Sequence record: SRR33789315_70
Direction: 5' to 3' (one strand)
Length of the DNA: 39,008 nt
Below, in pieces: positions 9,035 to 29,718 of the stretch. Every line of letters begins with the position of its first letter. The stretch's first letter is position 1. The notes under the pieces were generated by a model. The model did no database searches, was not told the origin of the DNA, and saw only the letters and a program-made list of their open reading frames with translations. Position numbers and translations under genes: made by a program.

Positions 9035-10453
9035 TTATAGAACTTCCCTTTTTTGATAATATTTACTAAAAATTAAAAATAATATTCCGCAAGATAGCCA
9101 TGCTGGTAGGGTGAGGAAGGAAAGAAAAATGTCAAATTTCAGTGAAATTCCGTAGAAGACAATTAAACTTATAGCCCAAGCACCTAGAACAGCCCAATTG
9201 AAAACAATACCAGATTTTTCAGCATAAAATGTTTGAATTCCTGCTTTCTTTCCGAAGAAATATTCAAAAACAATAATAGCTCCTACGGGCGCCAAAATAA
9301 AGCCATAGAGTGCGACAAATCCCAATAATTTCATTGCAAAGGCAGGAAAAATACCTGCAATCGTTGCGATCGTTCCGGCCATTATAGTCACCCAGAACGT
9401 AGATGTTTTAGGCATAATCGCCTGAAAAGCCAAGCCTGCTCTATAAATAGTTGGGTTAGCAGTGGTCCATCCTGCAAGAATTACTGCAATTATTCCAAAA
9501 ATACCAATGGCGTTATATGCCAAGGGGCCTGGAGCAACCGGCGGAGCTTCACCGTTGGCTAAAAATACCTGAGCTTCGGGAGATTTAATATAAACAGCAT
9601 ACAATAACGCAGCAGCAATCCACGCCATAAAATGACCAATATACATTCCGGCAGCCGTTGTCCATCCAGAGGTAGCTTTTTTCGCAAAGCGAAAAACAGA
9701 CAAGTCTGACATGCCTATGTGCATCGCGGCATTGGCGAACCAAGACCATAACATTACATGCCAAAAAGTATATTTAATTTGCCCTGGAAAAGGATCACTA
9801 CCTTCTCCCCAAATGTTCCAGAAATCTGAAAAACTATGAACTTCAAGTTGTTTTAATGCTACTATTCCGCAAATAAGAAATGCCAAAACAATAATGGGAG
9901 ACATCCAGTTTGCCACTTTTGCAACTGTACTATATCCTTTTGCAGCAATAATAGAAATTACAGCACCTATGGCAATCACAATAATGACCCAAGTAATACT
10001 ATTAGGCATGGTGTCGGTTAATCTTGGCATTTCCATATTGAAAGGAATGCCTACAGCCGTAGCCGAAACAGTAATCATCGATCCTGCCAGGAAACAAAAT
10101 AATATCCCATTAGCCAGATTATAAAAGGTAACCAGGCGTTTTCCGCATATTTTTTCTAAATGAAAATACAGCGTATAACGAAATTTTGCAGCTATTTCTG
10201 CGGTGAGAAAACGCCAGCTCATTACTGCGAGCAAATTTCCAATTAACAAGCCCATAATGAGATCAAAGGCACTAACACCAGTGGTTAAAAATAGCGGGCC
10301 AATTACAAATTCGGTTCCTGCTGCGTGCTCACCAGCATACATGCCCAAGAAACTTTTCCAGTTTTTTAATTTTGAAACAGGAACTGGTTGACGTTCAAAT
10401 TCTCCAGATGTATTAATCTCTAGAGTTTGTGCTTCTTGATCGTATATGGCCAT
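9035..10453 (-). CDS. NCS1 (purine-cytosine permease-like) family transporter; context suggests a sugar or sugar-acid substrate
   Basis: 472 aa with about 12 hydrophobic segments; N-terminal ERQPVP, GEHAAGTEF and GWTTANPTIY resemble the CodB/CytX-type WTT-N motif. Last gene of the rha operon, 11 bp gap. Confidence 0.8.
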   Translation of the reverse strand: MAIYDQEAQTLEINTSGEFERQPVPVSKLKNWKSFLGMYAGEHAAGTEFVIGPLFLTTGVSAFDLIMGLLIGNLLAVMSWRFLTAEIAAKFRYTLYFHLEKICGKRLVTFYNLANGILFCFLAGSMITVSATAVGIPFNMEMPRLTDTMPNSITWVIIVIAIGAVISIIAAKGYSTVAKVANWMSPIIVLAFLICGIVALKQLEVHSFSDFWNIWGEGSDPFPGQIKYTFWHVMLWSWFANAAMHIGMSDLSVFRFAKKATSGWTTAAGMYIGHFMAWIAAALLYAVYIKSPEAQVFLANGEAPPVAPGPLAYNAIGIFGIIAVILAGWTTANPTIYRAGLAFQAIMPKTSTFWVTIMAGTIATIAGIFPAFAMKLLGFVALYGFILAPVGAIIVFEYFFGKKAGIQTFYAEKSGIVFNWAVLGAWAISLIVFYGISLKFDIFLSFLTLPAWLSCGILFLIFSKYYQKREVL

Positions 10454-10464
10454 AAAAAGAGTTC

Positions 10465-11619
10465 TTATTTAATAGAAACTAAGTGCTTGGGAAGATCTTC
10501 CACACGGTTACAACACAGTTGATCGAGTACTTGTTTGAATTGTATTTTTAAAATTTCAATAGTATGATCACCTCCTTTATCACCCAGTGCAGCAGCACCA
10601 TACATAAAAGAGCGGCCCATAAAAGTGAATTTTGCTCCACAGGCAATGGCGCGAGCAATATCGGGACCGGAGCGCATCCCGCTGTCCATCATTATTTCAA
10701 TAGAGTCACTGTACTTTTCAACAATATCAACTAAAGATCTAATGGTAGACTGTGCGGCATCTAGTTGACGGCCACCGTGATTGGAAACTATAATTCCATC
10801 AAAACCCATGGCAATTGCATCTTGCGTATCCTGTTCTGAAGCGACACCTTTTAGAACTAATTTACCTTTCCATTTATCTCTAATGGGTTTGATTTTTTCG
10901 GCATTTAACCTTCCTGAAAAGGTCTTATCCATAAACTGCCCCAGTTGTTTTAGGTTTAGTCCTTCGGGAGTATAGGGTTTTAGAGATTCAAAAGTGGGTT
11001 GACCATACTTTAAGGTATTGTATGCCCAAGCTGGTTTTCCTAAAATTTGAAGTATGTTTTTTGCTGACATTTTTGGCGGAAGTGCGAGCCCGTTTCTTAT
11101 ATCTCGTGGACGATAGCCAAAGGTGGGAACGTCGCAAAGTAGAACGAGAACAGGGCATTCTGCCGCAGCTGCTCTCTTCAATAAGTCATCGCGAATCTCA
11201 TCTTCAACGGGATTGTACAATTGAAACCAAGCTTTGCCTTCTGTAACCTCACTGGCACGCTCAATGCTCATTGTAGTTACCGTACTTAAAATAAATGGGA
11301 TGTTATGTTTGAAAGCTGCTTTGGCAAGGATTTCTGGGGAATTGGGCCACATCAAACCTTGCAAACCTACGGGAGCTATACCAAATGGGGCATCATATTC
11401 TATTCCCAGCACCTTTGTTTTTATAGAACTATTCCCATAATTTTGAAGGTACCTTGGCTGAAGTTGAACTTCACGAATATCTGATGTATTTCTGGCGATA
11501 CCTATATCTTCATTGCAACCACCATCCAGATAATCAAAGGCGAATGGAGGTACGCGTTTTTTTGCTTTTTCGCGCAAATCTGCTACTGAAGGATATTGAG
11601 TATCAAAAGTTGATGCCAT
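10465..11619 (-). CDS. lldD: FMN-dependent alpha-hydroxy-acid dehydrogenase, probable L-lactate dehydrogenase
   Basis: 384 aa; FDYLDGG, APVG, WFQLY, LKGV, SNHGGRQLD, DSGMRSGPD, MGR; 1 bp from the kinase stop codon. Confidence 0.85.
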   Translation of the reverse strand: MASTFDTQYPSVADLREKAKKRVPPFAFDYLDGGCNEDIGIARNTSDIREVQLQPRYLQNYGNSSIKTKVLGIEYDAPFGIAPVGLQGLMWPNSPEILAKAAFKHNIPFILSTVTTMSIERASEVTEGKAWFQLYNPVEDEIRDDLLKRAAAAECPVLVLLCDVPTFGYRPRDIRNGLALPPKMSAKNILQILGKPAWAYNTLKYGQPTFESLKPYTPEGLNLKQLGQFMDKTFSGRLNAEKIKPIRDKWKGKLVLKGVASEQDTQDAIAMGFDGIIVSNHGGRQLDAAQSTIRSLVDIVEKYSDSIEIMMDSGMRSGPDIARAIACGAKFTFMGRSFMYGAAALGDKGGDHTIEILKIQFKQVLDQLCCNRVEDLPKHLVSIK

Positions 11620-11620
11620 A

Positions 11621-13003
11621 TTAGTATAACTGTAGAGGTATGAGTTTTTTCATTTTATAATTGTCCTTAATAAATTTTGAAGTTATCTGCTTACTGGAAA
11701 TAACCATCACTGCGCCCAATGCCGTACCTAATGGGGATTGAGTGGACAGCACTTTAAATTGATTAAAGTGATGCGCCATTAATTTCATAAAGACATCATT
11801 ATCTGTAAAACCACCGTCTATATAAATCGTATTAATTTGACTATTTCCAATGGCTTTTTCAATGGTGCTAACTTGTAGTTCCATCAATTCAATCATCAAT
11901 TGGTGGTAAGCTTCTTCAAAAGTGGAGAACGACTTTAAGTCTGTTGCGTGTAATTTTTTTCGCTGTAGCGAAATACCTTCAAACTTGAAATAAATGGCTG
12001 AATTTTTAATAAGCTTCAGGTACAAGTCTTTGTCAAAGATTACCGTACGATGGTAACCGTATTCTTTTTGGTAATATTCTCCTAATTTTTCAACTTGAAT
12101 TCTATATTCCCTACCCATAAAAAAACGGGAAGCCTTTACGCGTTTACCATCTATTCGTAGATAATTTAGACAATTGTCGCAAAGATCTTGAGGAGTAAGT
12201 TGTTCTGAATTGAATGGATTTAAAGTGATGCTCCACGTGCCGGTAGAAACCAAAACAAAAGGTTTTTTCTTACTGAAAATATAAGGGAGCAAGGCCGAAG
12301 AACTGTCGTGAATACCTACGCCTATTTTTATTTTTTTGTCTTTAAATTTGGTGTTAATACTCGTCGAAGTAGGAACAATGGGAGCTAAAATTCTGTCAAT
12401 ATGCTCTTTATATACCCATTTGTGATAATCTGCTTTCTCATAATCCCATAAATTGGTGTGACATCCTATACTCGTGTATTCACTTACAGCAATTCCTGTA
12501 AAAAGATAGGAAAGGTATTGGGGAAGATGAAGGCTATATTTAATTTGACTGAATATTTCGGGTTTTGTTTTCTTTAACCAATAGAGTTGCATCCCGCTAT
12601 TCAAAAAACCAGATTGCGGTGAAGCGGTTTCTGTTGCAATTTTGCAAGAACCACCATAGGTTTCATAAAATTCTTTACTTAGAGCTTCTTCAATCGATTT
12701 CGTATAATTATAAAGAGGAGTTAAGGGTTTTCCTCGATGATCAATATGTACAAAACTTGCTCCATAGGTAGAAAAATTGACGGCTTTCACTTCATATTTT
12801 TCGTCCTCAAATACTTTTTTGAACGTCTCCTTGATCCAATTTTCTAACATGGATAAATCTTCACAAGGAAAACCTTCTTCATCTTTGGTTTCAGGTAAAC
12901 GAACATATTCTCTGTACACTTCTTGATAGTTCTTATCAAAAAGGAAGAATTTCTTATTGGTTTTACCAATATCAAATATGGCTGTTACTTTAGTATTAGA
13001 CAT
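11621..13003 (-). CDS. rhaB: FGGY-family carbohydrate kinase, probable L-rhamnulokinase
   Basis: 460 aa; FDIGKTNKK phosphate loop, STYGAS, GIHDSS, VSTGTWS, IDGG; directly follows the rhamnose isomerase. Confidence 0.82.
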   Translation of the reverse strand: MSNTKVTAIFDIGKTNKKFFLFDKNYQEVYREYVRLPETKDEEGFPCEDLSMLENWIKETFKKVFEDEKYEVKAVNFSTYGASFVHIDHRGKPLTPLYNYTKSIEEALSKEFYETYGGSCKIATETASPQSGFLNSGMQLYWLKKTKPEIFSQIKYSLHLPQYLSYLFTGIAVSEYTSIGCHTNLWDYEKADYHKWVYKEHIDRILAPIVPTSTSINTKFKDKKIKIGVGIHDSSSALLPYIFSKKKPFVLVSTGTWSITLNPFNSEQLTPQDLCDNCLNYLRIDGKRVKASRFFMGREYRIQVEKLGEYYQKEYGYHRTVIFDKDLYLKLIKNSAIYFKFEGISLQRKKLHATDLKSFSTFEEAYHQLMIELMELQVSTIEKAIGNSQINTIYIDGGFTDNDVFMKLMAHHFNQFKVLSTQSPLGTALGAVMVISSKQITSKFIKDNYKMKKLIPLQLY

Positions 13004-13007
13004 TGGT

Positions 13008-14282
13008 TTAGAGTCCTGTTGCTATGGTTTTGGTTCCGCGTTCTTGTATTAAATTCTTTCGCACGCCTAATTTTCTATACGTCGACAATGGATTAATTGC
13101 TCCACCTAAGTCTTCCCGCATTTTTTTAAGCAAGGGTCTAACATCGGTTCGGTAAGCATCTTGCAAAATTTCCTGACATTGGGCTACATCGTTTTCATTT
13201 TGAGCCATTAAAAGAGCTTTTCTATCAATGATCAATGCCTGTGCATACGCAATCATAATAGCTTCTAAGGATTGGAGTAAATCCTCCAGCGGATCTTTAG
13301 TATTGTGACTTGCATCTATCATCCAAGCCAAATCTGGATTTTGCGGATTGTTTTCCATACCATAAACCAGTTCATTGAAAATCAAGAATAGGGCATAGGG
13401 TTTTATGGAACCTACCGTAAGATCGTCATCACCGTATTTGCTGTCGTTAAAATGGAAACCACCTAATTTCCCTTTAAGCATAAGGGTTGCCACAATCTGT
13501 TCTATATTAGTATTGGGTAAATGATGACCCAGATCTACCAAGGTGAAAGCTCTATCTCCACAAGCTTGTGCCAGCATAAATGAAGTGCCCCAATCTTGAA
13601 TCACAGTGCTATAAAAATTGGGTTCGTAGGGTTTATATTCAATAAAGAGTTTCCAGTCTTCTGGCAAAGCAGAATAAATGGATTTTAAGCTTGCTTCGGT
13701 GTTTTTTAGCACCGATTGAAAATTAGATTGCCCTGGAAAATTAGCCCCATCTGCCAACCAAACCGTAAGACTTTTTGAGCCTAATTCTTTTCCGATTTTA
13801 ATTACCTCTAAATTATGCTGAATGGCTTGTTCTCGAGCAGATTCGTTTATACTGCTCAGTGAACCGTATTTATAGGTCTCTGTGGCATTAGTCTGATCCT
13901 GAAAAGTATTTGAATTCATAGCATCAAATGCAATTTGATGCTTTGCTGCAATTTCTTTTATGGCATGAACATCTGAGGGGATATCCCACGGAATATGTAA
14001 TGAAACAGCACCCGCACATTTTGTCAGGGCATTTAATATCCCAATATCATCCAGTTTTTGTTCTAAAGAAGCTGGCTCGCCACCGTATGAAAATCTTCCG
14101 AAGCGGGTGCCTCCAGCCCCTAATGCCCAACTGGGTATGGCGACTTGAAACTGCGAGAGTTTCTCCAAAACATGATCGAAGTCAATATTTTGATTATGAA
14201 GTTTCTTTTGTAGCAGTTCAAGTTCACTCACATAACATGAATCTGAATTTAAATCTGCTATTTGGTTAGGGGTTATTATCAT
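13008..14282 (-). CDS. rhaI: L-rhamnose isomerase, RhaI type (xylose-isomerase-like TIM barrel)
   Basis: 424 aa; PSWALGAGGTRF, LHIPWD, NSNTF, WLADG, EYKPYEP, VDLGHH, HFNDSKYGDDDL. Confidence 0.88.
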   Translation of the reverse strand: MIITPNQIADLNSDSCYVSELELLQKKLHNQNIDFDHVLEKLSQFQVAIPSWALGAGGTRFGRFSYGGEPASLEQKLDDIGILNALTKCAGAVSLHIPWDIPSDVHAIKEIAAKHQIAFDAMNSNTFQDQTNATETYKYGSLSSINESAREQAIQHNLEVIKIGKELGSKSLTVWLADGANFPGQSNFQSVLKNTEASLKSIYSALPEDWKLFIEYKPYEPNFYSTVIQDWGTSFMLAQACGDRAFTLVDLGHHLPNTNIEQIVATLMLKGKLGGFHFNDSKYGDDDLTVGSIKPYALFLIFNELVYGMENNPQNPDLAWMIDASHNTKDPLEDLLQSLEAIMIAYAQALIIDRKALLMAQNENDVAQCQEILQDAYRTDVRPLLKKMREDLGGAINPLSTYRKLGVRKNLIQERGTKTIATGL

Positions 14283-14293
14283 TTAAAATGGAG

Positions 14294-16393
14294 TTATCTT
14301 ACAAATGCATTAGCCATACCACCGTCTACATTTATAGTGTTTCCTGTACTTTTATCTAAAATTCCTACACAAACAAAAACGCCATTGGCGATATCTTGCG
14401 GAAGAATTATCTCGTTCAATAAATTTCTTTTAGCATAATGTTTGGGGAGCTCATCTACAGAAATCCCGTAAGCTTTTGCTCTTCCTTCAGCCCATTCTCC
14501 TTCCCATATTTTACTCCCTACTATGACACCATCTGGATTTACGGTGTTTACGCGTATTTTGTCTTTACCCAATTCTGCAGCCAAAAGACGCGTCATATGA
14601 AGTTGTCCTGCTTTTGCCGTTCCATAACCCACATTATTGGGGCCAGCAACGAGACCATTTTTACTAGCAATAGAAACCAGATCGCCTCCTAAATTTTGTT
14701 TTCTAAAAATATCAACTGCTTTTTGCGCCAATTCAAACTGGCCTTTAACCAAAACATCTTGTAACAGATACCAGTCTTTCTCGGTAGTATCTTCTAGAGA
14801 TTTTGAGATGGCAAGACCTGCACTATGTACAACAATATCTACTCCTCCAAATTCTAAACAGGCTTTTTTGAATGCTTTTTGAATAGATTCTGGTTTAGTG
14901 ACATCACACATCACATACGTAGCAATATCATTTTTAAAAGATTTTTCAACCTCGATCAATCGATCTTCAGCAATATCTGTAAGAACAATATTAGCTCCCT
15001 CTTCTGCAAGTTTTTCTGCAATAGCTTTTCCTATTCCGCCACCGGCGCCAGTAATTAAAGCTATCTTTCTAGAGAGGGTTTTCTCTTTGGGCATACGTTG
15101 TAATTTGGCTTCTTCCAGTAACCAATATTCAATATCAAACGCTTCCTGTCTAGGTAATGATGTGTAGGATGAAATGGCTTCTGCACCGCGCATTACATTG
15201 ATGGCGTTGACATAAAATTCGCTTGCTACCCGTGCTGTTTGCTTGTTCTTTGCAAAACTGAACATTCCTACTCCTGGATAGATTATAATCACGGGATTAG
15301 GATCTCGCATAGCAGGACTATTTGAGTGCTTACAATTTTCGTAATATGACTTATATTCTTCCCTATAAGCGACAAAGGCAGGCTCAAGTTCTTTTAAAAC
15401 AATAGCAGCATCTGTTTCTTCAAAGTCAGCACCCAGTTCGAGAACAAGAGGCTGTATTTTTGTACGTAAAAAGTGATCGGGACAGGAAGTGCCCATGGGA
15501 GCTAGGCGGTCAAGATCATTACTGTTTATATATTCTAGAACAGTTACACTATCTGTAAAATGACCAATCATTCTATTTTCAGAAGAGGTAAGTCCTCTTA
15601 GGATTGGCATTAATCCGGTAGCTTTTTCTTTTCTTTTTTCTGAGGTTAGACTTTCAACTTTTTGACCTCCGAAAACGTTACCTTTTTCAGTTAATTTTTT
15701 TTGAATATAATCTGAAGCTTGTTCAATTACTTCCAGACTGTTCATATAGCATTCATAAGAAGTATCGCCCCACGTAAATAGGCCATGGCTTCCTAAGATT
15801 ATCCCGCGAATACCAGGGTTTTCAGTAAGGCATTTTTCAAGTTGAAGTCCCAGATCAAATCCAGGACGCTGCCAAGGCACCCAACCCATACTACCTCCCC
15901 AAATTTCTTTAGTGATTGCTTCACCATCTTTAGCAGCAGCAATAGCAATCAATGCATCGGGATGTAAATGATCTATATGTTTAAACGGGAGTAACCCGTG
16001 AAGCGGAGTATCTATTGATGGAGCTTTACTGTTTAGATCATAAATACAATGATTGAACAAACCCACCATACGGTCTTCATCAGCCAACCCTTGATAGATA
16101 TTTTTTAAATTTCTTAGACGCTTTGTGTAGAGTCCAGCGATACCTTCTCTTGTTAAGGTACCTATATCACCTCCAGATCCCTTTACCCACATAACCTCTA
16201 CATCTTCATTGGTCAAAGGATCTTTTTCTATTGTTTTACAACTGGTATTGCCACCACCATAATTGGTGATTCTAAGGTCAGCCCCTAAGATATTAGAACG
16301 ATATAAAAATAAAGAAACCTGATCGTCTCCCAATTTTTCTTCTATATCTTTATCCCAAAGGTAATTTACATATTCAAAGTTTTTAACTTCCAT
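14294..16393 (-). CDS. rhaD: Bifunctional rhamnulose-1-phosphate aldolase / short-chain (lactaldehyde) dehydrogenase, RhaEW type
   Basis: 699 aa; class II aldolase N-domain (NYGGGNTS, KGSGGD, PSIDTPLH, HLHPD, CPDHFLRTK, EYWLLEEAKL) fused to an SDR domain (TGAGGGIG, YGTAK, VNPD, VDGG). Confidence 0.93.
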   Translation of the reverse strand: MEVKNFEYVNYLWDKDIEEKLGDDQVSLFLYRSNILGADLRITNYGGGNTSCKTIEKDPLTNEDVEVMWVKGSGGDIGTLTREGIAGLYTKRLRNLKNIYQGLADEDRMVGLFNHCIYDLNSKAPSIDTPLHGLLPFKHIDHLHPDALIAIAAAKDGEAITKEIWGGSMGWVPWQRPGFDLGLQLEKCLTENPGIRGIILGSHGLFTWGDTSYECYMNSLEVIEQASDYIQKKLTEKGNVFGGQKVESLTSEKRKEKATGLMPILRGLTSSENRMIGHFTDSVTVLEYINSNDLDRLAPMGTSCPDHFLRTKIQPLVLELGADFEETDAAIVLKELEPAFVAYREEYKSYYENCKHSNSPAMRDPNPVIIIYPGVGMFSFAKNKQTARVASEFYVNAINVMRGAEAISSYTSLPRQEAFDIEYWLLEEAKLQRMPKEKTLSRKIALITGAGGGIGKAIAEKLAEEGANIVLTDIAEDRLIEVEKSFKNDIATYVMCDVTKPESIQKAFKKACLEFGGVDIVVHSAGLAISKSLEDTTEKDWYLLQDVLVKGQFELAQKAVDIFRKQNLGGDLVSIASKNGLVAGPNNVGYGTAKAGQLHMTRLLAAELGKDKIRVNTVNPDGVIVGSKIWEGEWAEGRAKAYGISVDELPKHYAKRNLLNEIILPQDIANGVFVCVGILDKSTGNTINVDGGMANAFVR

Positions 16394-16422
16394 TTTACTG
16401 TATTGTAAAGGATTTGAAAAAT

Positions 16423-16430
16423 CAAAAATA
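16423..16430 (-). promoter_or_regulatory. Bacteroidota -7 promoter element (TATTTTTG) for the rha operon
   Basis: CAAAAATA on + reads TATTTTTG on -, matching TAnnTTTG, 30 bp upstream of the aldolase/SDR ATG. No clean -33 TTTG seen. Confidence 0.55.
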
Positions 16431-16440
16431 TTTATACTTA

Positions 16441-16466
16441 TTGTTAGAAGCGTTCTGAACTGTTAG
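16441..16466 (-). promoter_or_regulatory. Putative operator of the adjacent GntR regulator (site 1)
   Basis: Minus strand reads CTAACAGTTCAGAACGCTTCTAACAA; contains the GTTC-N-GAAC dyad and matches the site at 17582-17594 at 12 of 13 positions. Confidence 0.55.
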
Positions 16467-17516: not shown

Positions 17517-17581
17517 ACAGTCATAATACATACATTTTTGTTAAAAAAACATAGAATTCCTTTACTTTTTTAGCAATTTCA

Positions 17582-17610
17582 TAACAGTTCGGAATAGTAT
17601 TAAACGCAGT
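17582..17610 (+). promoter_or_regulatory. Putative operator of the GntR regulator (site 2), upstream of susC
   Basis: TAACAGTTCGGAATAGTATTAAACGCAGT; 12/13 match to the minus-strand site at 16453-16465; AAC/AAT half-sites recur every 10 bp. Confidence 0.5.
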
Positions 17611-17737
17611 GATGGTTAACATTGTGTGATGATATTTATAAGCTAACTTTTTTTCACCTATTATATTCTATCTACTATATCGATTGAGAAGGCACTCTTT
17701 TTATATTGGTTTTAGAGTAAAGTCAAATAAAAGACAT

Positions 17738-20847: not shown

Positions 20848-22275
20848 ATGAAAACAAGTAATATTAAAATAACCCTACTCGCACTTCTAGGTATATACCT
20901 AACGTCCTGTTCGGATGATTTTTTGGAGTTGGCTCCTATTTCACAAATGAATGAGAATGACTTCTATCAATCAGAAGCAGATTTCAGGCTGGCTGTAAAT
21001 GCAGCTTATCAAACACTTCACAGTCAATATGGTCCTAATAGCGGGGTAAGTTACGTTGGCGAACAAATGTCTGATGAAGCTACCGTTTATATGGTCATAG
21101 GAAATGTAGCAGATAGATCTGCTTTTAAAAACTATACCTTACGTGCAGATAATAGTGTGGTACAAACTATTTGGAATGATGCTTTTATTTCCTTAAATAG
21201 AATCAATACGGTTCTAACCAGAATGGAAGGAGCCGATTTTGATGCAAGTACGATGACTGAAATTGAAGGGGAGATGCGTTTTTTACGCGGCTTGTACTAT
21301 TTCAATTTAGTAAGAATGTTCGGTCCAGTACCACTCTTGGAAAGGACGGTTTCAGTTGAAGAAAGTTATGGTGTATTACGCTCACCGGTAACTGAAGTTT
21401 ATGATTTCATAATCTCAGATCTACAATTTGCAGCAGCTAATTTACCTCTTGTCTCAGAGGCCGAAAGAACTGGCCAAGCAACTGAAGGAGCAGCAAAAGG
21501 AATTTTAGGTAAAGTCTATCTCACCTTGGGAGACAACAGTTCTGCAGCTTCTGTTTTAGAAGACGTTATTGATTCTGGAGAATATCATCTACTAGACAAT
21601 TACTGGTGGTTGTGGGATTTAGAACATGAAAATTCATCTGAGGCTGTTTTTGAAGTCCAGTACGTAGGCGGTCCTGGTAATCCAGCAAGTGCCTATTGGC
21701 CAGAGTTTTCTCCCTTTGAAAATTTTATTATCACGAATCAAGGTGGTGGAATGAATCAAGTAACAGAAGACCTCTGGAATTCTTATGAAGATGATGATCC
21801 TAGAAGAGAATACTCTGTTAATGAAGGATATTACGACAGCAACGGAACATTTATTCCAATTAAATTTCCTAGAAAATGGGAAGATAGAAATGTTATTGAA
21901 AAGTATGGTAACGAGTATTGTGATAATAATTTTATAGTCCTTAGGTATGCAGATATTTTACTAATGTATGCTGAAGCAACCCAAGATCCCACTTACCTTA
22001 ACGAAGTAAGAGAAAGAGCCGGTGTCCCACTTTATGGCACGGCAGGTTACCCTTCTGCAATGTACCCGTCGTTTGATCTAGCAATAGAACATGAGAGAAA
22101 AGTTGAACTGGCATTAGAATTTCATCGCTGGTTTGACCTTAAGAGAAAAGATAGGGTTATACCTGTAATGACAGAATTTTTAGGAGAAAATATAAAAGAG
22201 GACGAACTTTTATTGCCTATTCCACAAACGGTGATTGATAAAAATCCTGAAATTAGCCAAAATCCCGGATACTAA
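20848..22275 (+). CDS. susD: SusD/RagB glycan-binding lipoprotein (PUL-1)
   Basis: 475 aa; lipobox LTSC, GEMRFLRGLYYFNLVRMFGPVP, RYADILLMYAEA, ERKVELALEFHRWFDLKR, QNPGY. Confidence 0.95.
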   Translation: MKTSNIKITLLALLGIYLTSCSDDFLELAPISQMNENDFYQSEADFRLAVNAAYQTLHSQYGPNSGVSYVGEQMSDEATVYMVIGNVADRSAFKNYTLRADNSVVQTIWNDAFISLNRINTVLTRMEGADFDASTMTEIEGEMRFLRGLYYFNLVRMFGPVPLLERTVSVEESYGVLRSPVTEVYDFIISDLQFAAANLPLVSEAERTGQATEGAAKGILGKVYLTLGDNSSAASVLEDVIDSGEYHLLDNYWWLWDLEHENSSEAVFEVQYVGGPGNPASAYWPEFSPFENFIITNQGGGMNQVTEDLWNSYEDDDPRREYSVNEGYYDSNGTFIPIKFPRKWEDRNVIEKYGNEYCDNNFIVLRYADILLMYAEATQDPTYLNEVRERAGVPLYGTAGYPSAMYPSFDLAIEHERKVELALEFHRWFDLKRKDRVIPVMTEFLGENIKEDELLLPIPQTVIDKNPEISQNPGY

Positions 22276-22350: not shown

Positions 22351-24642
22351 ATGAATAAAATATGGTCAAAATACGTCGCTCTAGTGATTTTCCTGAGTTT
22401 ATCAAATACCTATGGATGGAGCCAAATAACCTATCCAGATTATAAAGAGGAAAGTGAGAAAGCTAAAATCTCGACGAAGATTTCAAATGAATACATGCCG
22501 GTAATAGGTGTTTGGGTTTGGGGTCAACGTGATATGGAACCTGATGGATTCAAAAAGAGTATAGACGATCTTGCTTCAAATTCTCCCTTTAATCTTATCG
22601 TTCCTTTTTTGCGATTTCCTGACAAAGAAGTGACTGATGATGTGGTTTATCAGCAGGTGAAAGAAGCTTCAGAATATGCAGCGGCAAAAGGCGTATTGCT
22701 AGTGCCAGATCTTGATGTGCGTTCTGCGAGGAGGGCCTTTAAGGCTAAATATCCAGACGAGCTTCAACAAATGTTGAGGTTAAAGGAAGTTGAACTAGAG
22801 GATAAAACAGTTACGATTCCCAGTATGGATCTTAATGATCATTATTCTGGCGGAAACATTACCCATCATATTCCTTTAGAAGGTGAATTGCTCAAGGTGT
22901 ATGCTTACAAAACCACTACCGAAGGAATTGAACCGAAGTCTATTGTTGATATTACTGAAGAAACTAAAATCCTATATGCTACTAAAGATTCAGTAAGTGT
23001 ACAATTACCAGCGCTTAAAAAAGGTCTGACGCATGCTTCGGTTTTAGTTGCTTTTACACACTTATACCCTGATATCTTCGGTCCTCATCTTATGAAATTC
23101 CAAGAGGGTATCATTAAAAAGTATAAAGGACTTCCAGTAGCAGGTGTTTGCAAGGATGAGTTTGGTTTTCCTCCTTATTATCCGAGATTTTTTAGACAAG
23201 GATTTTATGATTATTGGTATTCTGTTAATCGCGCAGAAGCTTATCAAGAAAAAACAGGAAGAGAACTTCTGCCAGACATATTGCTAATGGCCAGAAAGGT
23301 AAAGGGGAAAGAAAGTGAGCGGCAAACGGCGATCAATAATTTTATGGAGATGTCCAGATACCGTCATCGCGATCTTGAAGCTAGTTTTTATGATACGACT
23401 AAAGAAGTATTTGGTCCAGATGCTGCAGTAACGGTACACTCCACGTGGTGGCCTTTTCCTGACAAGCAGGAATTTAAGAAAAACGGACTCGATTGGTGGG
23501 TTACAAAGCGGGATTGGGCACAGACTGATGAGGTGGTTCCTTATGCTGTTCGGACTGCTTTGAGTAAAAAATGGCCCAGTCCCATTTGGTACAATATGTA
23601 TTATAAAGAGGATTATTCAACCCAGATGTGGAGCTCGGTTCTTGCGGGTGGAAGATTGAATTATTTAAGGTATTACGCTTTATATGATAAGGAGCGCATG
23701 CAAGGTGAAAACCGAATTAGACTCCTGAATTATATCACAAAAACACCCGTTTATTCACCTGTCGCAGTGATTTTTGGTCACGCTAATGCAATGAATTGGG
23801 CAGGTACTGAGCACGATGACGTAGGGATGGCATTAGTGGATAGCTTGTGGCATAAAGGTTTTCTTGTAGATTTGATTCCCACCAGTGAAATTGATAATGG
23901 AAGTTTAGAAATTTCACCTAGCGGAAAAATCAAATATGGTTCTCAGGAATATGAAGAAGTTATTCTTTATCATCCTGAATTTGAAAAGGAATCTACAGCT
24001 GATTTCTTTAGCAAAGCCAAAAAAGGAACTGCACTATACCGCATAGGAGATTGGACTAAAACTTTCGATGGAAAAGCTATTGAAGGGAATGATTTACTTC
24101 CAGAAATGATGCAGGTCGCTGGAGGAATTTCAGAAACCGCTGAAGCGGTCATTAACTCTTTAAAGTCCAAAAACATAGATCCTCAAAGCCCATCTACCGA
24201 AGTAATTGACAATACTTTTTTTGGTTTACGGGATTTTGAACACGCTTCGTATGCCCCGCCTACCACTGGTTTTGCTAAGTTGATAGATGGAACAATAATT
24301 AAAACTGCTGGAACTAATTCTGCTGCGGGCGATCCCATAAATGAAGAGTTTAAGATACGTGATAAAACTGTCTCTGTTGATGCAATAGGTGTTGTTGCAG
24401 TGCGTCTAGATGAGGCGGGAAAATTGGATGCTATGGTTGCTGGAGGCTTTAAGTCTTTTGAAGTAGATGATTTCAAAATTGAGCTAAATGAAAGAAATGA
24501 TATAGCTTTATGGAAAGACGAAAATGACCAATGGAAAGGCGTTTTTCAAAGTATTAACTCTGAAATCCCTCAAGAATTATTAAAAATCACTCATAATTGG
24601 ACACAATTAGAGGCACCCACACCGCCCTTAAAAGAGCAATAA
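22351..24642 (+). CDS. Secreted protein of unknown function; candidate glycoside hydrolase (TIM-barrel-like plus GH42/GH106-style Rossmann-like domain)
   Basis: 763 aa; signal peptide; Trp/Tyr-rich; VCKDEFG acidic pair after a beta-strand; PVAVIF...SLWHKGFLVDLI segment resembling the domain after the barrel in GH42/GH106. Located in a PUL. The ORF is secure, the function is inferred. Confidence 0.55.
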   Translation: MNKIWSKYVALVIFLSLSNTYGWSQITYPDYKEESEKAKISTKISNEYMPVIGVWVWGQRDMEPDGFKKSIDDLASNSPFNLIVPFLRFPDKEVTDDVVYQQVKEASEYAAAKGVLLVPDLDVRSARRAFKAKYPDELQQMLRLKEVELEDKTVTIPSMDLNDHYSGGNITHHIPLEGELLKVYAYKTTTEGIEPKSIVDITEETKILYATKDSVSVQLPALKKGLTHASVLVAFTHLYPDIFGPHLMKFQEGIIKKYKGLPVAGVCKDEFGFPPYYPRFFRQGFYDYWYSVNRAEAYQEKTGRELLPDILLMARKVKGKESERQTAINNFMEMSRYRHRDLEASFYDTTKEVFGPDAAVTVHSTWWPFPDKQEFKKNGLDWWVTKRDWAQTDEVVPYAVRTALSKKWPSPIWYNMYYKEDYSTQMWSSVLAGGRLNYLRYYALYDKERMQGENRIRLLNYITKTPVYSPVAVIFGHANAMNWAGTEHDDVGMALVDSLWHKGFLVDLIPTSEIDNGSLEISPSGKIKYGSQEYEEVILYHPEFEKESTADFFSKAKKGTALYRIGDWTKTFDGKAIEGNDLLPEMMQVAGGISETAEAVINSLKSKNIDPQSPSTEVIDNTFFGLRDFEHASYAPPTTGFAKLIDGTIIKTAGTNSAAGDPINEEFKIRDKTVSVDAIGVVAVRLDEAGKLDAMVAGGFKSFEVDDFKIELNERNDIALWKDENDQWKGVFQSINSEIPQELLKITHNWTQLEAPTPPLKEQ

Positions 24643-26769
24643 ATGCAGAGAATGTTTAGACATACCCTTATACTTTTAGTTCTGATAATAGGACAAGGTT
24701 CCTTTTCTCAAATAGACCGTAAGGCTTTGGTGACAAGACATAATGTAAAAGTTTCAGCGATGGATACGCTTTCCTCATTGACTGTGGGAAATGGCTCTTT
24801 TGCTTTTACCGTAGATGCGACCGGCTTACAAACCTTTCCTGAACGCTACCAAAACGGAGTGCCTTTAGGAACCGAATCTGAATGGGGATGGAACAGTTTC
24901 CCAAATAATGAGGAATATACCTTTGATGAAACCTTACAAGAATTTGATCAATTTGGACGCAAGGTAAAGTACAGTGTGCAAGGTCAAAAATCAGAAAGAG
25001 CTAAGGGAGCAATTAATTATTTTAGAGCGAATCCGCACCGGGTACAATTGGGAAACATAGGGTTTGAACTATTTAAAAAAAATGGAGAACCCGCAACTCC
25101 AGAGGACATCCAGCAAATAGATCAAAAGCTGAATTTATGGACGGGAATTATAGAAAGTCATTTTACGGTTGAGGGGAAATCTGTTCACGTTTGGACGGCT
25201 TCAGATCAAGAAAGTGATGCTATTGGAGTGAAAATTGAATCTGAATTAATAAAAACGGGTCAGTTAAAAATCAGGATTCGGTTTCCGTTTCCCACAGCAG
25301 GATGGACAGACATAGGAACTTTATGGCAATCTGATAGAAATTATACGAGTACACTTTCCATGCAAAAAAATGGAGGAATCATCAACCATAAAATGGATTC
25401 CTTATCCTATCAAATTGGGTTAAAATGGAATGGTAAAGCAGAATTAAAGAAAAAAGAGAATCAATATTTCATATTAGAACCTTCTGGTAAAAGTGAATTT
25501 GCTTTTACAGCATCATTTTCAAATGAGAAGACGGAGAAATTATTGGATTTTTCAACGCTTAAAAGAAATAGCGAAAAAGGGTGGGAAGATTTTTGGGAAA
25601 GTGGAGCTGCGGTTGACTTTTCAGAAAGTACAGACCCGCGTGCCCACGAACTGGAACGACGCGTAGTTCTTTCACAATACCTAACTAAAGTTCAATGCAC
25701 GGGAGAGATGCCTCCACAAGAAACAGGGTTGACGTATAACAGTTGGTATGGTCGCCCGCATCTGGAGATGCACTGGTGGCATAGCTTGCATTTTGCACTT
25801 TGGGATAGGGCAGAATATCTTGAAAAAACGCTGCCCTGGTATAAAAAAACGGCTAATAAAGCTCAAAAATTGGCCGAAAGACAAGGTTTTGAAGGTGTTC
25901 GTTGGCAAAAAATGACAGGACCTTATGGCAACGACACACCCTCTTCTGTAGGTGCATTTCTCATTTGGCAACAGCCGCATTATATCACTTTTGCTGAATT
26001 GCTTTACACCCAAAAACCAACTGCAGAAACTCTGGAAACTTATAAAAATTTAGTCTTTGAAACAGCCGATTTTATGGCTTCGTTTGCGCATTACAATTCT
26101 GAAGAAGATAGATATGAGCTTGGGCCGGGAATCATACCCGCACAAGAGCGTTTTAAACCTTTTCAAACCATTAATCCAACGTATGAATTGGCATACTGGG
26201 ATTGGGCTTTACGCAGAGCCATTAAATGGAAGAAAAGACTAGGGGAGACCCCCAATACTGAATGGCAAAATGTGGTTGATAAGCTTTCACCCTTGCCCAT
26301 TCAAGAGAATATCTATCTTGCGGTAGAAAGTGCCCCTGATTCCTATACCAATCCAGAGTATAAAACCGATCATCCCGCAGTTTTGGGAACATTGGGAATG
26401 TTACCGGAATCTGAGATTCTGGATAAAGAAATAATGAAAAATACCTTCAATCTCATTTGGGATACGTGGTCTTGGGATGAAACCTGGGGTTGGGATTTCC
26501 CCATGACGGCAATGACGGCAACTCGATTGGGAATGCCAGAAAAAGCAATTGAATCCCTCTTTATGGATGTGGAAACCAACACTTTTTTGCCTAACGGACA
26601 TAATTATCAAAACGAGACACTTACCCTATATCTCCCTGGAAACGGCGGACTTTTAACCGCTGTGGCATTGATGTGCGCAGGATGGGAAGGAAACGAAATT
26701 GAAAATCCCGGCTTTCCCAAAAACGGAAAATGGAACGTAAAATGGGAAGGCCTAAAACCAATGTTTTAA
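24643..26769 (+). CDS. Secreted six-hairpin (alpha/alpha)6 glycosidase-like protein, distantly GH95/GH65-like
   Basis: 708 aa; signal peptide; LTVGNG, PPQETGL, WYGRPHLEMHWWH, IPAQE, DHP, PGNGGLL parallel in order the GH95 motifs LPxGNG, PANLQG, NxEMNYW, SPE, HRH, DGNxG. Confidence 0.65.
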   Translation: MQRMFRHTLILLVLIIGQGSFSQIDRKALVTRHNVKVSAMDTLSSLTVGNGSFAFTVDATGLQTFPERYQNGVPLGTESEWGWNSFPNNEEYTFDETLQEFDQFGRKVKYSVQGQKSERAKGAINYFRANPHRVQLGNIGFELFKKNGEPATPEDIQQIDQKLNLWTGIIESHFTVEGKSVHVWTASDQESDAIGVKIESELIKTGQLKIRIRFPFPTAGWTDIGTLWQSDRNYTSTLSMQKNGGIINHKMDSLSYQIGLKWNGKAELKKKENQYFILEPSGKSEFAFTASFSNEKTEKLLDFSTLKRNSEKGWEDFWESGAAVDFSESTDPRAHELERRVVLSQYLTKVQCTGEMPPQETGLTYNSWYGRPHLEMHWWHSLHFALWDRAEYLEKTLPWYKKTANKAQKLAERQGFEGVRWQKMTGPYGNDTPSSVGAFLIWQQPHYITFAELLYTQKPTAETLETYKNLVFETADFMASFAHYNSEEDRYELGPGIIPAQERFKPFQTINPTYELAYWDWALRRAIKWKKRLGETPNTEWQNVVDKLSPLPIQENIYLAVESAPDSYTNPEYKTDHPAVLGTLGMLPESEILDKEIMKNTFNLIWDTWSWDETWGWDFPMTAMTATRLGMPEKAIESLFMDVETNTFLPNGHNYQNETLTLYLPGNGGLLTAVALMCAGWEGNEIENPGFPKNGKWNVKWEGLKPMF

Positions 26770-28127
26770 TGAATAGAATACCTACAATGAAACCTTTTTT
26801 GATACTGCTTTGGTGTTTTTTAAGCGTAAACTCCTTTGCTCAGGTTTTTAATGTTTTTGATTATGGGGCCAAAGGTGATGGGAAAACGAATGATCAGGAG
26901 GCGATTCAACGAGCCGTGAACGCTTGTAAAAATGGAGGAACCGTTCTTTTAAAGAATGGAACTTTTCTTACTGGTCAAATTGAACTGGTGAGTAATATGA
27001 CGTTGCAAATCGATTCAACCGCCACAGTATTGGGAATGAAATCTGACGAGGAAAGCGTTTATCCGCATCAACTTATAGAGACCCAATATCCCAACCGTAT
27101 GGAGCAGGATTGCCAGCGGCGCTTGATTTATGGTAATCATATTGAAAATGTCACCATTACTGGAGGAGGAACCCTAAACGGACAAGGGGATTATGAACCT
27201 TGGATGAATGTAAAAGAGCTGGGTACCGAGAAAGATAGACCGTCAATTTTAGCTTTTGTGGGTTCAAAAAACATAACGGTTTCTAATGTGACGATGCTTT
27301 ATCCAGCTTGCTGGACACAGGTATACATTGAGTGTGACGACGTACATATTAAGGGGATTAAAGTCAATACAGGTCAATTGACACCTAACCGCGATGGGAT
27401 TGATATTGTGGATTGTCATAATGTGTTGATTGAAGATAGTTTTATCCAGTCTGAAGATGACGGGATTTGCTTTAAAAGCGGAAGCGAATACGGGTGCAAG
27501 GATGTGGTGGTGCGCAACTGTATTATTGATAAATTGAACGTTCCAGCAGGGAATGGTTTTAAATTAGGAACAGACGGACTGGGGAGTTTTATGAACTTTG
27601 AAGTTTATGATTTGACCATCAAAAATGCCTTTCAAAATTCGGCATTAGTTATAGAATCTATGGATGGTGCGGTAATCGATAATATCAACATCAAGGATTG
27701 TACAATAGAGAATAGTGGCCAAGCGATTTTTGTGCTGCTGGCTGACAGAAAACGTACGGTTCCCGATCGAAAAGAAAGGATCGGGACAATTTCTAATATT
27801 CATTTTGAAAATATAAAAGGTAAGGATTTTACACAACAATATCCTTCTATAATTACGGGTATAGAAGGGCATAATATTCAGAATATTTCCTTTAAAAACA
27901 TTGATTTTGAATTAAAAGGAGGGATTTCAAATAAAGATCAAACCGTAATGGAATATGACGGTAAATATCCCGAGGGAAGCAAATTTGGCAATACCAATGC
28001 CTATGCTTTTTTTGTGCGTCATACCGATGAAATTTCCTTTGTAAACTGCACTATTTCTTCGGAAGAAGACGATGCTCGGGAATGGTTAATTACTGAAAAT
28101 GTAAACGAAGTTGTTGTTGAAGAATAA
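26769..28127 (+). CDS. GH28-family beta-helix glycoside hydrolase with atypical motifs
   Basis: FDYGAKGDG, NRDGIDI, EDDGICFKSG, FKLGT. Start at 26769 (TAATG overlap with the upstream stop) or 26787; signal peptide follows MKPF. Confidence 0.85.
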   Translation: MNRIPTMKPFLILLWCFLSVNSFAQVFNVFDYGAKGDGKTNDQEAIQRAVNACKNGGTVLLKNGTFLTGQIELVSNMTLQIDSTATVLGMKSDEESVYPHQLIETQYPNRMEQDCQRRLIYGNHIENVTITGGGTLNGQGDYEPWMNVKELGTEKDRPSILAFVGSKNITVSNVTMLYPACWTQVYIECDDVHIKGIKVNTGQLTPNRDGIDIVDCHNVLIEDSFIQSEDDGICFKSGSEYGCKDVVVRNCIIDKLNVPAGNGFKLGTDGLGSFMNFEVYDLTIKNAFQNSALVIESMDGAVIDNINIKDCTIENSGQAIFVLLADRKRTVPDRKERIGTISNIHFENIKGKDFTQQYPSIITGIEGHNIQNISFKNIDFELKGGISNKDQTVMEYDGKYPEGSKFGNTNAYAFFVRHTDEISFVNCTISSEEDDAREWLITENVNEVVVEE

Positions 28128-28137
28128 AGAGACATTT

Positions 28138-29718
28138 ATGAAAAATGTAATACTGTTTTTTCTATTGATTTCAAGTTTTGGCGGAAGCCTAATGGCTCAA
28201 GTATGGCAAGCCGATCTTGAAAATGGAAACTATAAAAACCCGGTTCTTTTTGCTGATTATTCAGATCCTGATATCATTCGGGTAGAAGATGATTTTTATA
28301 TGGTGTCTTCTAGTTTTAATGTGATGCCGGGGATTCCCGTATTACATTCTAAGGATTTAGTGAATTGGGAAATCATCAATCATGTGTATGATAAACTTCC
28401 GCTAGAAAAATATGACAAACCCGTACACGGTCATGGGTCTTGGGCACCTTCTATCCGCTATCACGAGGGTAGGTTTTATGTGTATTTCTGTACGCCTAGA
28501 GATGGATTGTTTATGGCAACCACCACAGATCCTGCTGGAGATTGGGAATTAAATTTGGTGGAAAACGTAGAACTCTGGGAAGATCCTTGTCCGTTGTGGG
28601 ATGATGACGGCAATGCGTATTTGGTGCGCAGTAAATTAAGAGCAGATGAATTGTATTTGCATAAAATGAGCCCAGATGGTAAAAAATTGCTCGATAATGG
28701 CAAATTGATCTATAAAGATCTGGATAAAAATCCGGTTATTGAAGGGCCTAAATTTCTAAAGAAAGACGGGTATTATTATATTTTAGCTCCTGCTGGAGGT
28801 GTTTCGGTGGGATGGCAATCAGCCTTGCGCTCTAAAAATATTTACGGTCCTTATGAAGAAAAAGTAGTGCTTCAAAAGGGAAATACGGAGATTAATGGTC
28901 CGCATCAAGGAGGTTTGGTCGAATTGAAATCGGGAGAATGGTGGTTTATGCATTTTCAAGATCGGGGTGCGTATGGCAGGATTGTGCATTTGCAACCGGT
29001 GCATTGGGAAAACGGATGGCCTGAGATGGGTGTAGATCAAAATAGTGATGGAATAGGCGAGCCTGTTGCTGAATATAAAAAACCAGATGTAGGTAAAGAG
29101 TATCCAGTAATGGTGCCACAAACTACAGATGAATTTGATGGTGAGCAACTGGGACTGCAATGGCAATGGCACGCCAATCCGAAAGACGAATGGTATTCGC
29201 TTTCAGAAAAAGAAGGTTCTTTGAGATTGTTTTCGGTTAAAAACCATACCCAAAATGGGAACTTTTGGTTTGTACCCAACTTGCTGCTTCAAAAATTTAT
29301 GGCGCCTAAGTTTTCGGCAACCACAAAAGTAGAGACGCATTTAGAAGAATTGGGAGAACGAAGCGGACTTGTAATGATGGGGGAACAATGGGCCTATTTA
29401 GCGATAACAAAAACAGATTCTGGAAATGAATTGGGAATGTATGTTGGTTCGTATTACGAAGGTTTTGACAAGACTGAAAAGAAAGCTTCGGTTGATTTCT
29501 CAAACGCTATGTGTTATATGCGTGTAAGAGTGGATGAGCAGTTAGATTGTCAATTTCAATATAGTCTGGATGGTGAAAAATTCACGGATATAGGTGAAAA
29601 ATTTAAAGCAAAGAAAGGAAGATGGATAGGTGCGAAGGTAGGTTTGTTTAGCATTAATCCCAATATTCAGGAGAGCAAAGGATATTCAGATTTTGAGTGG
29701 TTTCGAGTTGGGTTATAA
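28138..29718 (+). CDS. GH43 beta-xylosidase / alpha-L-arabinofuranosidase with C-terminal beta-sandwich
   Basis: NPVLFADYSDPD (base), HSKDLVNW, WAPSIRY, EDP, IEGP (acid), PHQGGLV, DEF..QWQW C-domain. ATG at 28138 is followed by a signal peptide. Confidence 0.92.
   Translation: MKNVILFFLLISSFGGSLMAQVWQADLENGNYKNPVLFADYSDPDIIRVEDDFYMVSSSFNVMPGIPVLHSKDLVNWEIINHVYDKLPLEKYDKPVHGHGSWAPSIRYHEGRFYVYFCTPRDGLFMATTTDPAGDWELNLVENVELWEDPCPLWDDDGNAYLVRSKLRADELYLHKMSPDGKKLLDNGKLIYKDLDKNPVIEGPKFLKKDGYYYILAPAGGVSVGWQSALRSKNIYGPYEEKVVLQKGNTEINGPHQGGLVELKSGEWWFMHFQDRGAYGRIVHLQPVHWENGWPEMGVDQNSDGIGEPVAEYKKPDVGKEYPVMVPQTTDEFDGEQLGLQWQWHANPKDEWYSLSEKEGSLRLFSVKNHTQNGNFWFVPNLLLQKFMAPKFSATTKVETHLEELGERSGLVMMGEQWAYLAITKTDSGNELGMYVGSYYEGFDKTEKKASVDFSNAMCYMRVRVDEQLDCQFQYSLDGEKFTDIGEKFKAKKGRWIGAKVGLFSINPNIQESKGYSDFEWFRVGL

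Follow-up and report, generated by a model that had tools for sequence, protein, structure and literature searches.

A two-armed L-rhamnose regulon is predicted in the window, a 39,008-nt stretch of DNA from sequence record SRR33789315_70. Among the 21 open reading frames (ORFs) of at least 100 aa in the window, named with Pfam and NCBIfam, a single GntR-type regulator gene lies between a divergent rhamnose catabolic (rha) operon and a polysaccharide utilization locus (PUL) with SusC- and SusD-like uptake proteins (SusCD), and the gene map thus agrees with the arrangement proposed in an earlier, sequence-only reading of this DNA. We favour, with a rough probability of 0.6, a two-armed rhamnose regulon in which two secreted orphan proteins of the PUL, orfX and orfY, would replace the rhamnosidases. 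The AraR-like regulator would bind two 18-bp operators, O1 at the rha operon and O2 at the PUL, and control of both arms by this one protein is very probable on the operator evidence. The features are collected in Table 1.

The sequence-only reading had pointed to a near-identical 13-bp motif ahead of both operons. This motif, TAACAGTTCNGAA, was found without mismatch at 16453-16465 (minus strand) and 17582-17594 (plus strand) only, and each copy points to its operon. With up to one mismatch, three matches were present against 0.22 expected, and three were reached in 0 of 100 shuffles. To place these copies in an evolutionary frame, 79 loci encoding relatives of the regulator were taken from genome contigs, and 26 unique sites from relatives, all upstream of the regulator gene, served to train a weight matrix; the window was left out. 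The operator spans 18 bp and contains two CTGTTCT-like heptads in direct repeat, 10 bp or one helical turn apart. O1 and O2 were the top two matrix sites in the window, and 0.085 sites of at least 17 bits were expected per shuffled window. The third best site (12.1 bits, inside rhaEW at 14338-14355) was taken as chance, since 1.5 sites of at least 11 bits were expected per shuffled window, and so was the third copy of the 13-mer (29719-29731, one mismatch), which scored below 7 bits in the matrix.

The box was conserved at the equivalent position in the rhaEW/regulator intergenic regions of relatives, orthologous to O1. Sequence downstream of the regulator gene, which had no part in training the matrix, was tested within 500 nt at a threshold of 14 bits. 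A downstream site was present in 29 of the 73 testable loci, and its orientation was identical (minus) in 29 of 29. When the loci were divided by regulator identity, the site occurred in 28 of 45 loci at 55% or more and in 1 of 28 more distant ones. The background was 31 sites of at least 14 bits in the remaining 1.26 Mb of the regulator loci, or 0.013 per 510 nt. As a control, 80 metagenome loci carrying orfX and lacking the regulator (893 kb) yielded only 3 sites of at least 15 bits, indicating no operator enrichment.

We take TAnnTTTG to be the -7 promoter box of Bacteroidota. Near 78 sites of at least 17 bits, 14 exact boxes were found on the target side, with a spacing of 18 nt in 14 of 14, and 5 were found on the non-target side, where they were scattered. 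In the window, both operators stand 18 nt upstream of a -7-type box, which places the operator at about -31 to -48 and suggests that the regulator acts at the promoter. The regulator would repress until rhamnose or a rhamnose catabolite binds, with activation as the alternative. By family habit we lean slightly towards repression at the -33 region, and the strict 18-nt spacing would suit an activator too.

The regulator was linked to rha genes across genomes, rhaEW being the most frequent (52 of 79 loci; the counts for the other genes are given in Table 1), and many of the loci lacking rhaEW are short contigs. The SusC gene directly follows the regulator in 13 of 79 loci. To identify the targets, Pfam was run on 49 neighbouring ORFs, which came from 22 of the 79 loci. 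Behind the second operator, or divergent before the first, we found glycoside hydrolase (GH) family GH78 in L002, L004, L006, L007, L013, L014 and L038, and GH106 in L001, L002, L005, L012, L035 (three pieces) and L043. Other operator targets were SusC (L011, L018, L020, L039, L024, L026-L028, L049, L050 and L067), rhaEW (L004, L016 and L043) and GH28 (L037). In these relatives SusCD is followed by GH78 (L011), by GH106 (L018 and L067), or by GH31 with an esterase or the polysaccharide lyase PL22 (L024, L026 and L049). A conserved operator therefore precedes rha genes and other targets across genomes, and the combination of rha genes with varied rhamnosidase and SusCD targets indicates a conserved rhamnose regulon with a variable rhamnoside-harvesting arm. 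The proposal that one regulator joins the rha operon and the PUL is thus supported both by the top ranking of O1 and O2 and by the two-operator layout kept in relatives. The GH106 gene behind the operator in L035 (11085-13958) consists of three ORF pieces and is likely decayed. A DUF3500 protein is inserted in the rha operon of some Maribacter-type loci (L001:16714-17925 and L007:6556-7800).

The position of O2 also allows a different explanation, in which it does not control the PUL. Both operators would then serve autoregulation, for example by looping over about 1.1 kb, and the PUL would be a neighbour under some other control, its target a pectic or hemicellulosic glycan with no relation to rhamnose. 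In agreement with this, most relatives have the sites on both sides of the regulator gene irrespective of what follows it, O2 and susC are separated by a terminator-like hairpin, and in uncultured Bacteroidota the same enzyme set stands under extracytoplasmic function (ECF) sigma and anti-sigma factors, with no rha genes within the stretches taken. We nevertheless regard it as very unlikely, because the gene after the second operator was rhamnose-related where checked (GH78, GH106, rhaEW, or SusCD with GH78 or GH106) and because the operator has one orientation, with 18 nt to the -7 box on the target side. Moreover, by Pfam the window SusC lacks an STN signalling domain, and in the window the PUL has neither a hybrid two-component gene nor a sigma/anti-sigma pair as a neighbour.

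The regulator carries an N-terminal GntR winged helix (PF00392, E 1e-10, 41.5 bits, cutoff 27) and a C-terminal LacI/periplasmic-binding-type domain (PF13377, E 4e-5, 24.1 bits, slightly under the cutoff of 26.5), and the latter was recorded for many of its 5553 homologues. This is the chimeric layout of Bacillus subtilis AraR, the arabinose repressor, in which a GntR DNA-binding domain is joined to a LacI/GalR-type effector domain. When the family profile was compared with the PDB, the DNA-binding domain of AraR (4egy) was matched with E 6e-10, and LacI-type sugar-binding domains were matched weakly. The likeness is one of layout and does not imply orthology, since other small GntR proteins outscore AraR in the profile search; AraR also belongs to another phylum and has another sugar and another operator. 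The closest relatives of the regulator are found in Maribacter, Flagellimonas, Robiginitalea and similar genera, and its effector is presumably rhamnose or a catabolite of it. In other genera, a paralogue with 40-45% identity adjoins rha operons or clusters of GH28, DUF4450 and orfY (L052-L055, L180, L182, L185 and L186). Its box differs in having more TCCTGTACTAT-like heptads, and paralogue and variant box may form a sister regulon.

From the regulator outward, the rha operon has the order rhaEW-rhaI-kinase-lldD-transporter, divergent from the regulator gene. Through RhaI, the kinase, RhaEW and LldD, L-rhamnose would be converted to dihydroxyacetone phosphate and pyruvate, a route modelled on the pathway in PMC3870299. 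RhaEW was assigned by the equivalog model NF006191, whose cutoff was exceeded. The FGGY kinase scored 68.9 bits with the rhamnulokinase model TIGR02627, against a cutoff of 528, and by score is no RhaB orthologue. The transporter that closes the operon had no Pfam family in the Pfam scan and matched NCS1 weakly (TIGR00800, E 5e-12, far under cutoff); it may be a rhamnose permease, of a type not yet described. Its identity was 76-82% in Flavobacteriaceae rha operons and 51-55% in Saprospiraceae-type loci.

Table 1. Features of the 39,008-nt window, in order of position. The last column gives the number of regulator loci, out of 79, in which the gene was found.
Feature	Position	Strand	Evidence or remark	Regulator loci (of 79)
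uxaC, uxaB, uxaA	199-4673		Pfam/NCBIfam	0
sbcC, sbcD (nuclease genes)	4686-8922		Between uxaCBA and rha operon	0
Inner-membrane transporter, 472 aa, candidate L-rhamnose permease	9035-10453	-	Closes rha operon	32
Flavin mononucleotide-dependent L-lactate dehydrogenase, LldD-like (L-lactate to pyruvate)	10465-11619	-	PF01070, E 4e-116	25
FGGY sugar kinase, presumed L-rhamnulose kinase	11621-13003	-	FGGY_N and FGGY_C	44
L-rhamnose isomerase, RhaI type	13008-14282	-	TIGR02629, E 3e-150, 500.8 bits (cutoff 646.75, not reached)	47
RhaEW, bifunctional rhamnulose-1-phosphate aldolase and lactaldehyde dehydrogenase	14294-16393	-	NF006191, 1333.2 bits (cutoff 1240); NF006189, 980 bits (cutoff 634)	52
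-7 box match TATTTTTG, facing rhaEW	16423-16430	-	18 nt from O1
Operator O1, rhaEW/regulator intergenic region	16449-16466	+	23.0 bits, relatives-only matrix
Regulator, 340 aa, GntR winged-helix domain and LacI/periplasmic-binding-type sugar-binding domain	16494-17516	+	PF00392, PF13377
Operator O2, 86 nt ahead of the susC ORF start	17581-17598	-	17.8 bits, relatives-only matrix
-7-like box TAACATTG, susC side	17617-17624	+	18 nt from O2; one mismatch
SusC-like TonB-dependent transporter	17684-20827	+	TIGR04056, 945 bits; Pfam Plug and CarboxypepD_reg
SusD-like lipoprotein	20848-22275	+	PF07980, PF14322; lipoprotein box LTSC
orfX (P0001), secreted, 763 aa, TIM-barrel glycosidase-like, unnamed family	22351-24642	+	AlphaFold2 (AF2) model, predicted local distance difference test (pLDDT) 86.8	0
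orfY (P0002), secreted, 708 aa, distant GH65/GH95-like (beta-sandwich and alpha/alpha-6 barrel)	24643-26769	+	AF2 model, pLDDT 73.2	1
GH28, exo-acting or rhamnogalacturonan-type	26730-28127	+	PF00295, 91.7 bits (cutoff 22.9)
GH43 with C-terminal GH43_C2, arabinofuranosidase/xylosidase type	28111-29718	+	PF04616, E 2e-62, 211.9 bits; PF17851, E 2e-43, 149.3 bits

The PUL has adjacent susC and susD genes followed on the same strand by glycan-degrading enzymes. Its genes are closely packed: there is no gap between orfX and orfY, and the remaining gaps are at most 75 nt or are overlaps. Read by eye, the N-termini of orfX, orfY, GH28 and GH43 resemble cleavable signal peptides without a lipoprotein cysteine, so that no obvious surface endo-enzyme is encoded at the locus. 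None of the 21 window ORFs was assigned by Pfam to GH78, GH106, GH105 or a polysaccharide lyase, which bears out an absence already remarked on in the sequence-only reading, and no esterase or sulfatase was detected among the window ORFs by Pfam.

GH43, also recognised in that reading, was confirmed by its family profile (PF04616) together with PF17851, and its nearest PDB entries are 6mly and BoGH43B (5joz). The classic motifs of GH28 are NTD, DD, GHG and RIK. The window GH28 matches the family profile and has the catalytic aspartates, with NRD at 220, EDD at 242-244 and GNG in the GHG position, and RIK is absent; it had fairly been called atypical. Its best NCBIfam model is the rhamnogalacturonidase BT4146 (233 bits against a cutoff of 500) and its nearest PDB entry is the exo-polygalacturonosidase 3jur. 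Its true start is likely a later Met near 26787.

The two remaining secreted proteins had been described as unassigned, and they stayed so: neither orfX nor orfY, both with signal-peptide-like N-termini, could be placed in a Pfam or NCBIfam family, even when thresholds were relaxed. For orfX, PDB searches with the single sequence and with the family profile gave no meaningful match. A Foldseek search with its model returned the GH106 rhamnosidase 6q2f as the top match (E 7e-13), followed by GH112, GH106 BT_0986 and GH42; in the fold comparison the matches to GH106, GH42, GH112 and GH153 tied in Z. No match was obtained with the PF17132 profile of GH106 even at E 10, and orfX is about 300 residues shorter than the GH106 enzymes BT_0986 and Novosphingobium RHA-P. 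Among language-model neighbours, the rank-12 cluster (score 0.90) carried GH106 on 26% of its members, which we treat as a lead only. The invariant acidic residues D269-E270 and D393-E394 directly follow predicted strands 265-268 and 390-393, respectively; we tentatively place them at barrel strands 4 and 7.

The orfX family comprises 525 representative clusters at E of at most 0.001. Among 16 long members, 12 have extra domains beyond the core, P0013 is a thirteenth, with the GH28-related beta-helix domain PF12708, and 3 have no Pfam domain. The extra domains of the 12 are GDSL esterase (3), Fib_succ_major (2) and, one each, BD-FAE esterase, CE4-type deacetylase, GH2, BNR, HAD, HpiC1-like and M16 peptidase. 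The nearest relatives of orfX (at most 62% identity) come from Bacteroidales-type and Prolixibacteraceae-type bins, and some of the orfX neighbours are sulfatase, GH127, GH92 and GH123. In 401 Bacteroidia genomes one marginal match, broken by stops, was found, and orfX was absent from all 79 regulator loci.

With the catalytic-domain profiles of GH65 and GH95, orfY did not reach the threshold, the only match being PF14498 at E 0.12. Its family profile matched the GH65 kojibiose phosphorylase 3wiq (E 1e-5), indicating remote homology to GH65, and its invariant E502 aligns with the E of the GPDE stretch of 3wiq. We take the E of GPDE to be the general acid of GH65. The fold relatives of orfY include GH139, a rhamnogalacturonan II (RG-II) fucosidase. 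GH65, GH95 and GH139 are inverting alpha-glycosidases or phosphorylases to which orfY is about 13% identical, and orfY differs from them in its genomic context, which is rhamnose and rhamnogalacturonan rather than glucans or fucosylated glycans.

At least 7,999 relatives of orfY were found in public data, and homologues were present in 15 of 301 Flavobacteriaceae genomes, from which 14 neighbourhoods were taken. In 4 of the 14 (L176-L178 and L180), orfY stands inside or beside the rha operon, and in L176-L178 it is directly inside. GH28 is near in 4 of 14, as is a regulator paralogue with 40-42% identity in 4 of 14. The neighbourhoods also contain PL11, GH88/GH105-type, GH106, GH2, GH43, pectinesterase and pectate lyase genes. 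A DUF4450 protein of about 1,130-1,230 aa adjoins orfY in 12 of 14 neighbourhoods (L176-L186 and L188; e.g. L176:11093-14707, minus strand). It gave weak six-hairpin GH78/GH116-like matches. Paired with orfY, it stands in loci for rhamnose and rhamnogalacturonan, and it may represent yet another new enzyme family. None of orfX, orfY and the DUF4450 proteins was matched by the NCBIfam models for characterised pectin enzymes of Bacteroides, and DUF4450 was not mentioned in the literature searched.

We further examined how far these genes travel together. The closest relative is L037, with a regulator 76% identical, and it is the only regulator locus (1 of 79) with orfY. There, the second operator (21.4 bits) is followed directly by an orfY homologue (about 50% identical) and GH28 (72%), and SusCD is missing. 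The orfY homologue of L037 (L037:12766-14409; G001:C6:98658-100727) is interrupted by one in-frame stop, TAA, and is likely decayed. In the 80 orfX loci scanned on metagenome contigs, many of them short, orfY is adjacent to or near orfX in 5 (L085, L088, L089, L091 and L131), a homologous GH43 (41-47%) adjoins orfX in 5 (L081, L085, L094, L151 and L157), and GH28 is present in 2 (L085 and L157). SusC and SusD of L084 and L157 are 55-69% and 51-61% identical to those of the window, respectively. Neither rha genes nor the regulator occurred in any of the 80 loci within the stretches taken.

L085 has the order sigma, anti-sigma, SusC (with STN), SusD, GH43, orfX, orfY and GH28, and L157 has SusCD-orfX-GH43-GH28. 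Compared with the window, these loci of uncultured Bacteroidota (L085; also L157, L089 and L151) encode orfX with 44-58% and orfY with 50-56% identity. An ECF sigma factor paired with a FecR anti-sigma factor is encoded in L085, L089 and L151, and the SusC of L085 has the STN domain that the window SusC lacks. The same four-enzyme module thus exists elsewhere under trans-envelope signalling, and here it appears to be wired to a rhamnose operator. The expectation that the gene set would be conserved together held for each module and failed for their combination.

We propose that SusCD imports small rhamnose/galacturonate oligosaccharides made by others, likely fragments of a rhamnogalacturonan I (RG-I) backbone with arabinose or xylose stubs. 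In the periplasm, four exo-acting enzymes would dismantle them: GH28 would remove galacturonate and GH43 the pentose decorations, orfX and/or orfY would release rhamnose in place of GH78/GH106, and GH28 and the rhamnosidase would alternate on the RG-I-type backbone. We give an RG-I-type substrate an even chance. The regulon could be real and serve another substrate, such as a rhamnose-capped glycan of the arabinogalactan-protein or gum type, RG-II fragments, or an algal or bacterial exopolysaccharide of rhamnose and uronic acid. The organism groups with marine Flavobacteriaceae, to judge from the nearest relatives of its regulator, the fold relatives of orfY include GH139, the neighbours of orfX include sulfatase, GH127, GH92 and GH123, and lyase, GH105 and esterase are all missing from the window. 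Such a substrate is unlikely, however, given that the best named relative of GH28 is the RG-I enzyme BT4146, that orfY of Flavobacteriaceae occurs with PL11, GH105/GH88-type, GH106, pectinesterase and GH28, and that the window has no sulfatase.

That an orphan protein releases rhamnose had already been put forward. The idea gained weight from the context: the slot holds GH78 or GH106 in relatives, and orfY occurs in rhamnose and rhamnogalacturonan loci. The assignment itself we infer, and we place the chance that at least one of orfX and orfY is a rhamnosidase a little short of even. The case for orfX consists of the GH106-like lead and the positional argument. The case for orfY is its association with rhamnose loci, which is stronger than that of orfX. 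The DUF4450 partner, with its faint GH78-like matches, appears to have been replaced by orfX in the window.

Several observations weigh against the favoured reading. Profile-profile comparison of orfX with GH106 was negative (hhalign probability 5.6% against seven GH106 sequences of relatives), and orfX was found in 0 of the 301 Flavobacteriaceae genomes searched, the family of L037. The orfY model has a pLDDT of 73.2 with barrel segments below 50, and orfY is nearest to families acting on glucosides and fucosides (GH65 and GH95). The full combination of modules was seen only in the window among the 79 regulator loci, the 80 orfX loci and the genomes searched. On the operator side, 17 of the 45 close relatives (at least 55% identity) have no site of at least 14 bits after the regulator, the -7 box ahead of susC (TAACATTG) carries one mismatch, and the hairpin at 17604-17627, weak and terminator-like, separates O2 from susC, so that O2 could belong to the regulator's own 3' end. 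This hairpin could be the end of the regulator transcript, or chance. It overlaps the -7-like box, and 2 hairpins were found in the region against 0.4 expected.

The enzyme evidence also suits a reading in which neither orphan is a rhamnosidase. GH28 includes rhamnogalacturonan rhamnohydrolases, and rhamnose would be freed by GH28 or by a GH78 or GH106 encoded elsewhere. The protein orfX would then be a GH42-like galactosidase or arabinopyranosidase, consistent with its fold ties to GH42 and others and with the negative hhalign result, and orfY an alpha-fucosidase/galactosidase-like or glucosidase-like trimming enzyme, consistent with its nearness to GH65 and GH95. We hold this to be somewhat unlikely, because relatives have canonical rhamnosidases in this slot, the regulated arm of L037 consists of GH28 and the orfY homologue only, and orfY lies directly inside the rha operons of L176-L178.

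The uxaCBA genes had been counted as part of the system in the sequence-only reading, and this was not supported. They lie 4.4 kb from the rha operon behind sbcCD, their best operator match of 8.7 bits was at background level in the matrix scan, and uxaC, uxaB and uxaA were found in 0 of 79 regulator loci; membership in the regulon was rejected. Galacturonate catabolism may use uxaCBA, whose link to the regulon is one of neighbourhood alone. As sbcC and sbcD are missing from all 79 regulator loci, the uxaCBA-sbcCD-rha junction is specific to the window genome. A second PUL of xylan type (30214-38696), which comes directly after the first, encodes SusC, SusD, a surface glycan-binding protein (SGBP_B_XBD) and a GH10 xylanase with two CBM4_9 domains. 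The matrix scan found no rhamnose operator upstream of it (from 30214; best 9.3 bits).

Rhamnose regulons and pectin PULs are already known as kinds. The RG-I locus BT4145-BT4183 of Bacteroides thetaiotaomicron, reportedly described by Luis and colleagues in 2018, resembles the window in SusCD, in periplasmic exo-enzymes including a BT4146-like GH28, in GH43 and in rhamnosidase function. The window differs in having four enzymes, with no lyase, GH105, GH106, GH2/GH35 or esterase. Furthermore, the B. thetaiotaomicron locus is presumably controlled by a hybrid two-component sensor, whereas the window regulator is of the cytoplasmic monosaccharide type.

The rhamnose regulators described in the available text of Rodionova et al. 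(2013; PMC3870299) belong to the AraC, DeoR and LacI families. The RhaR/RhaS-type regulons treated there are like the window in having a local transcription factor beside the rha genes, a catabolic operon with rhamnosidases and oligosaccharide uptake, and RhaEW, and lldD is stated to extend the rhamnose pathway to pyruvate in Actinomycetales and Rhodobacterales. The window differs from the regulons given in that text by its GntR/LacI-chimera, its operator of direct heptad repeats and its SusCD uptake arm. The main text of PMC3870299 as available contains neither the word GntR nor the word Flavobacter, and "regulator" is absent from the accessible text of PMC11036162. No GntR-type rhamnose regulator in Bacteroidota was reported in the full-text literature searched, and for a new GH family with rhamnosidase activity on rhamnogalacturonan the literature searched gave only unrelated fungal work.

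New, on the genomic evidence, would be the transcription factor family and its operator, two unnamed GH-like families that would replace canonical rhamnosidases, and a module apparently rewired from sigma/anti-sigma to monosaccharide-type control. We tentatively suggest that orfX, orfY and the DUF4450 proteins are new GH families for rhamnogalacturonan-type glycans, including at least one new alpha-L-rhamnosidase family replacing GH78/GH106, and that the GntR/LacI-chimera is a fourth, hitherto unrecognised transcription factor family with a function in rhamnose control, one that is common across Flavobacteriia, Saprospiria and Cytophagia. The regulator-operator pair should be usable for predicting rhamnose regulons in three classes of Bacteroidota.

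Plant pectin, the walls of algae and the slimes of bacteria commonly contain rhamnose, for whose release only a few enzyme families are known. The locus offers a testable route to new rhamnose-releasing families, because orfX and orfY are secreted and well conserved, are wired by the operator and stand in the position that GH78 or GH106 takes in relatives. One four-enzyme module would thus be found under two control logics, cytoplasmic sugar sensing here and trans-envelope sigma/anti-sigma signalling elsewhere.

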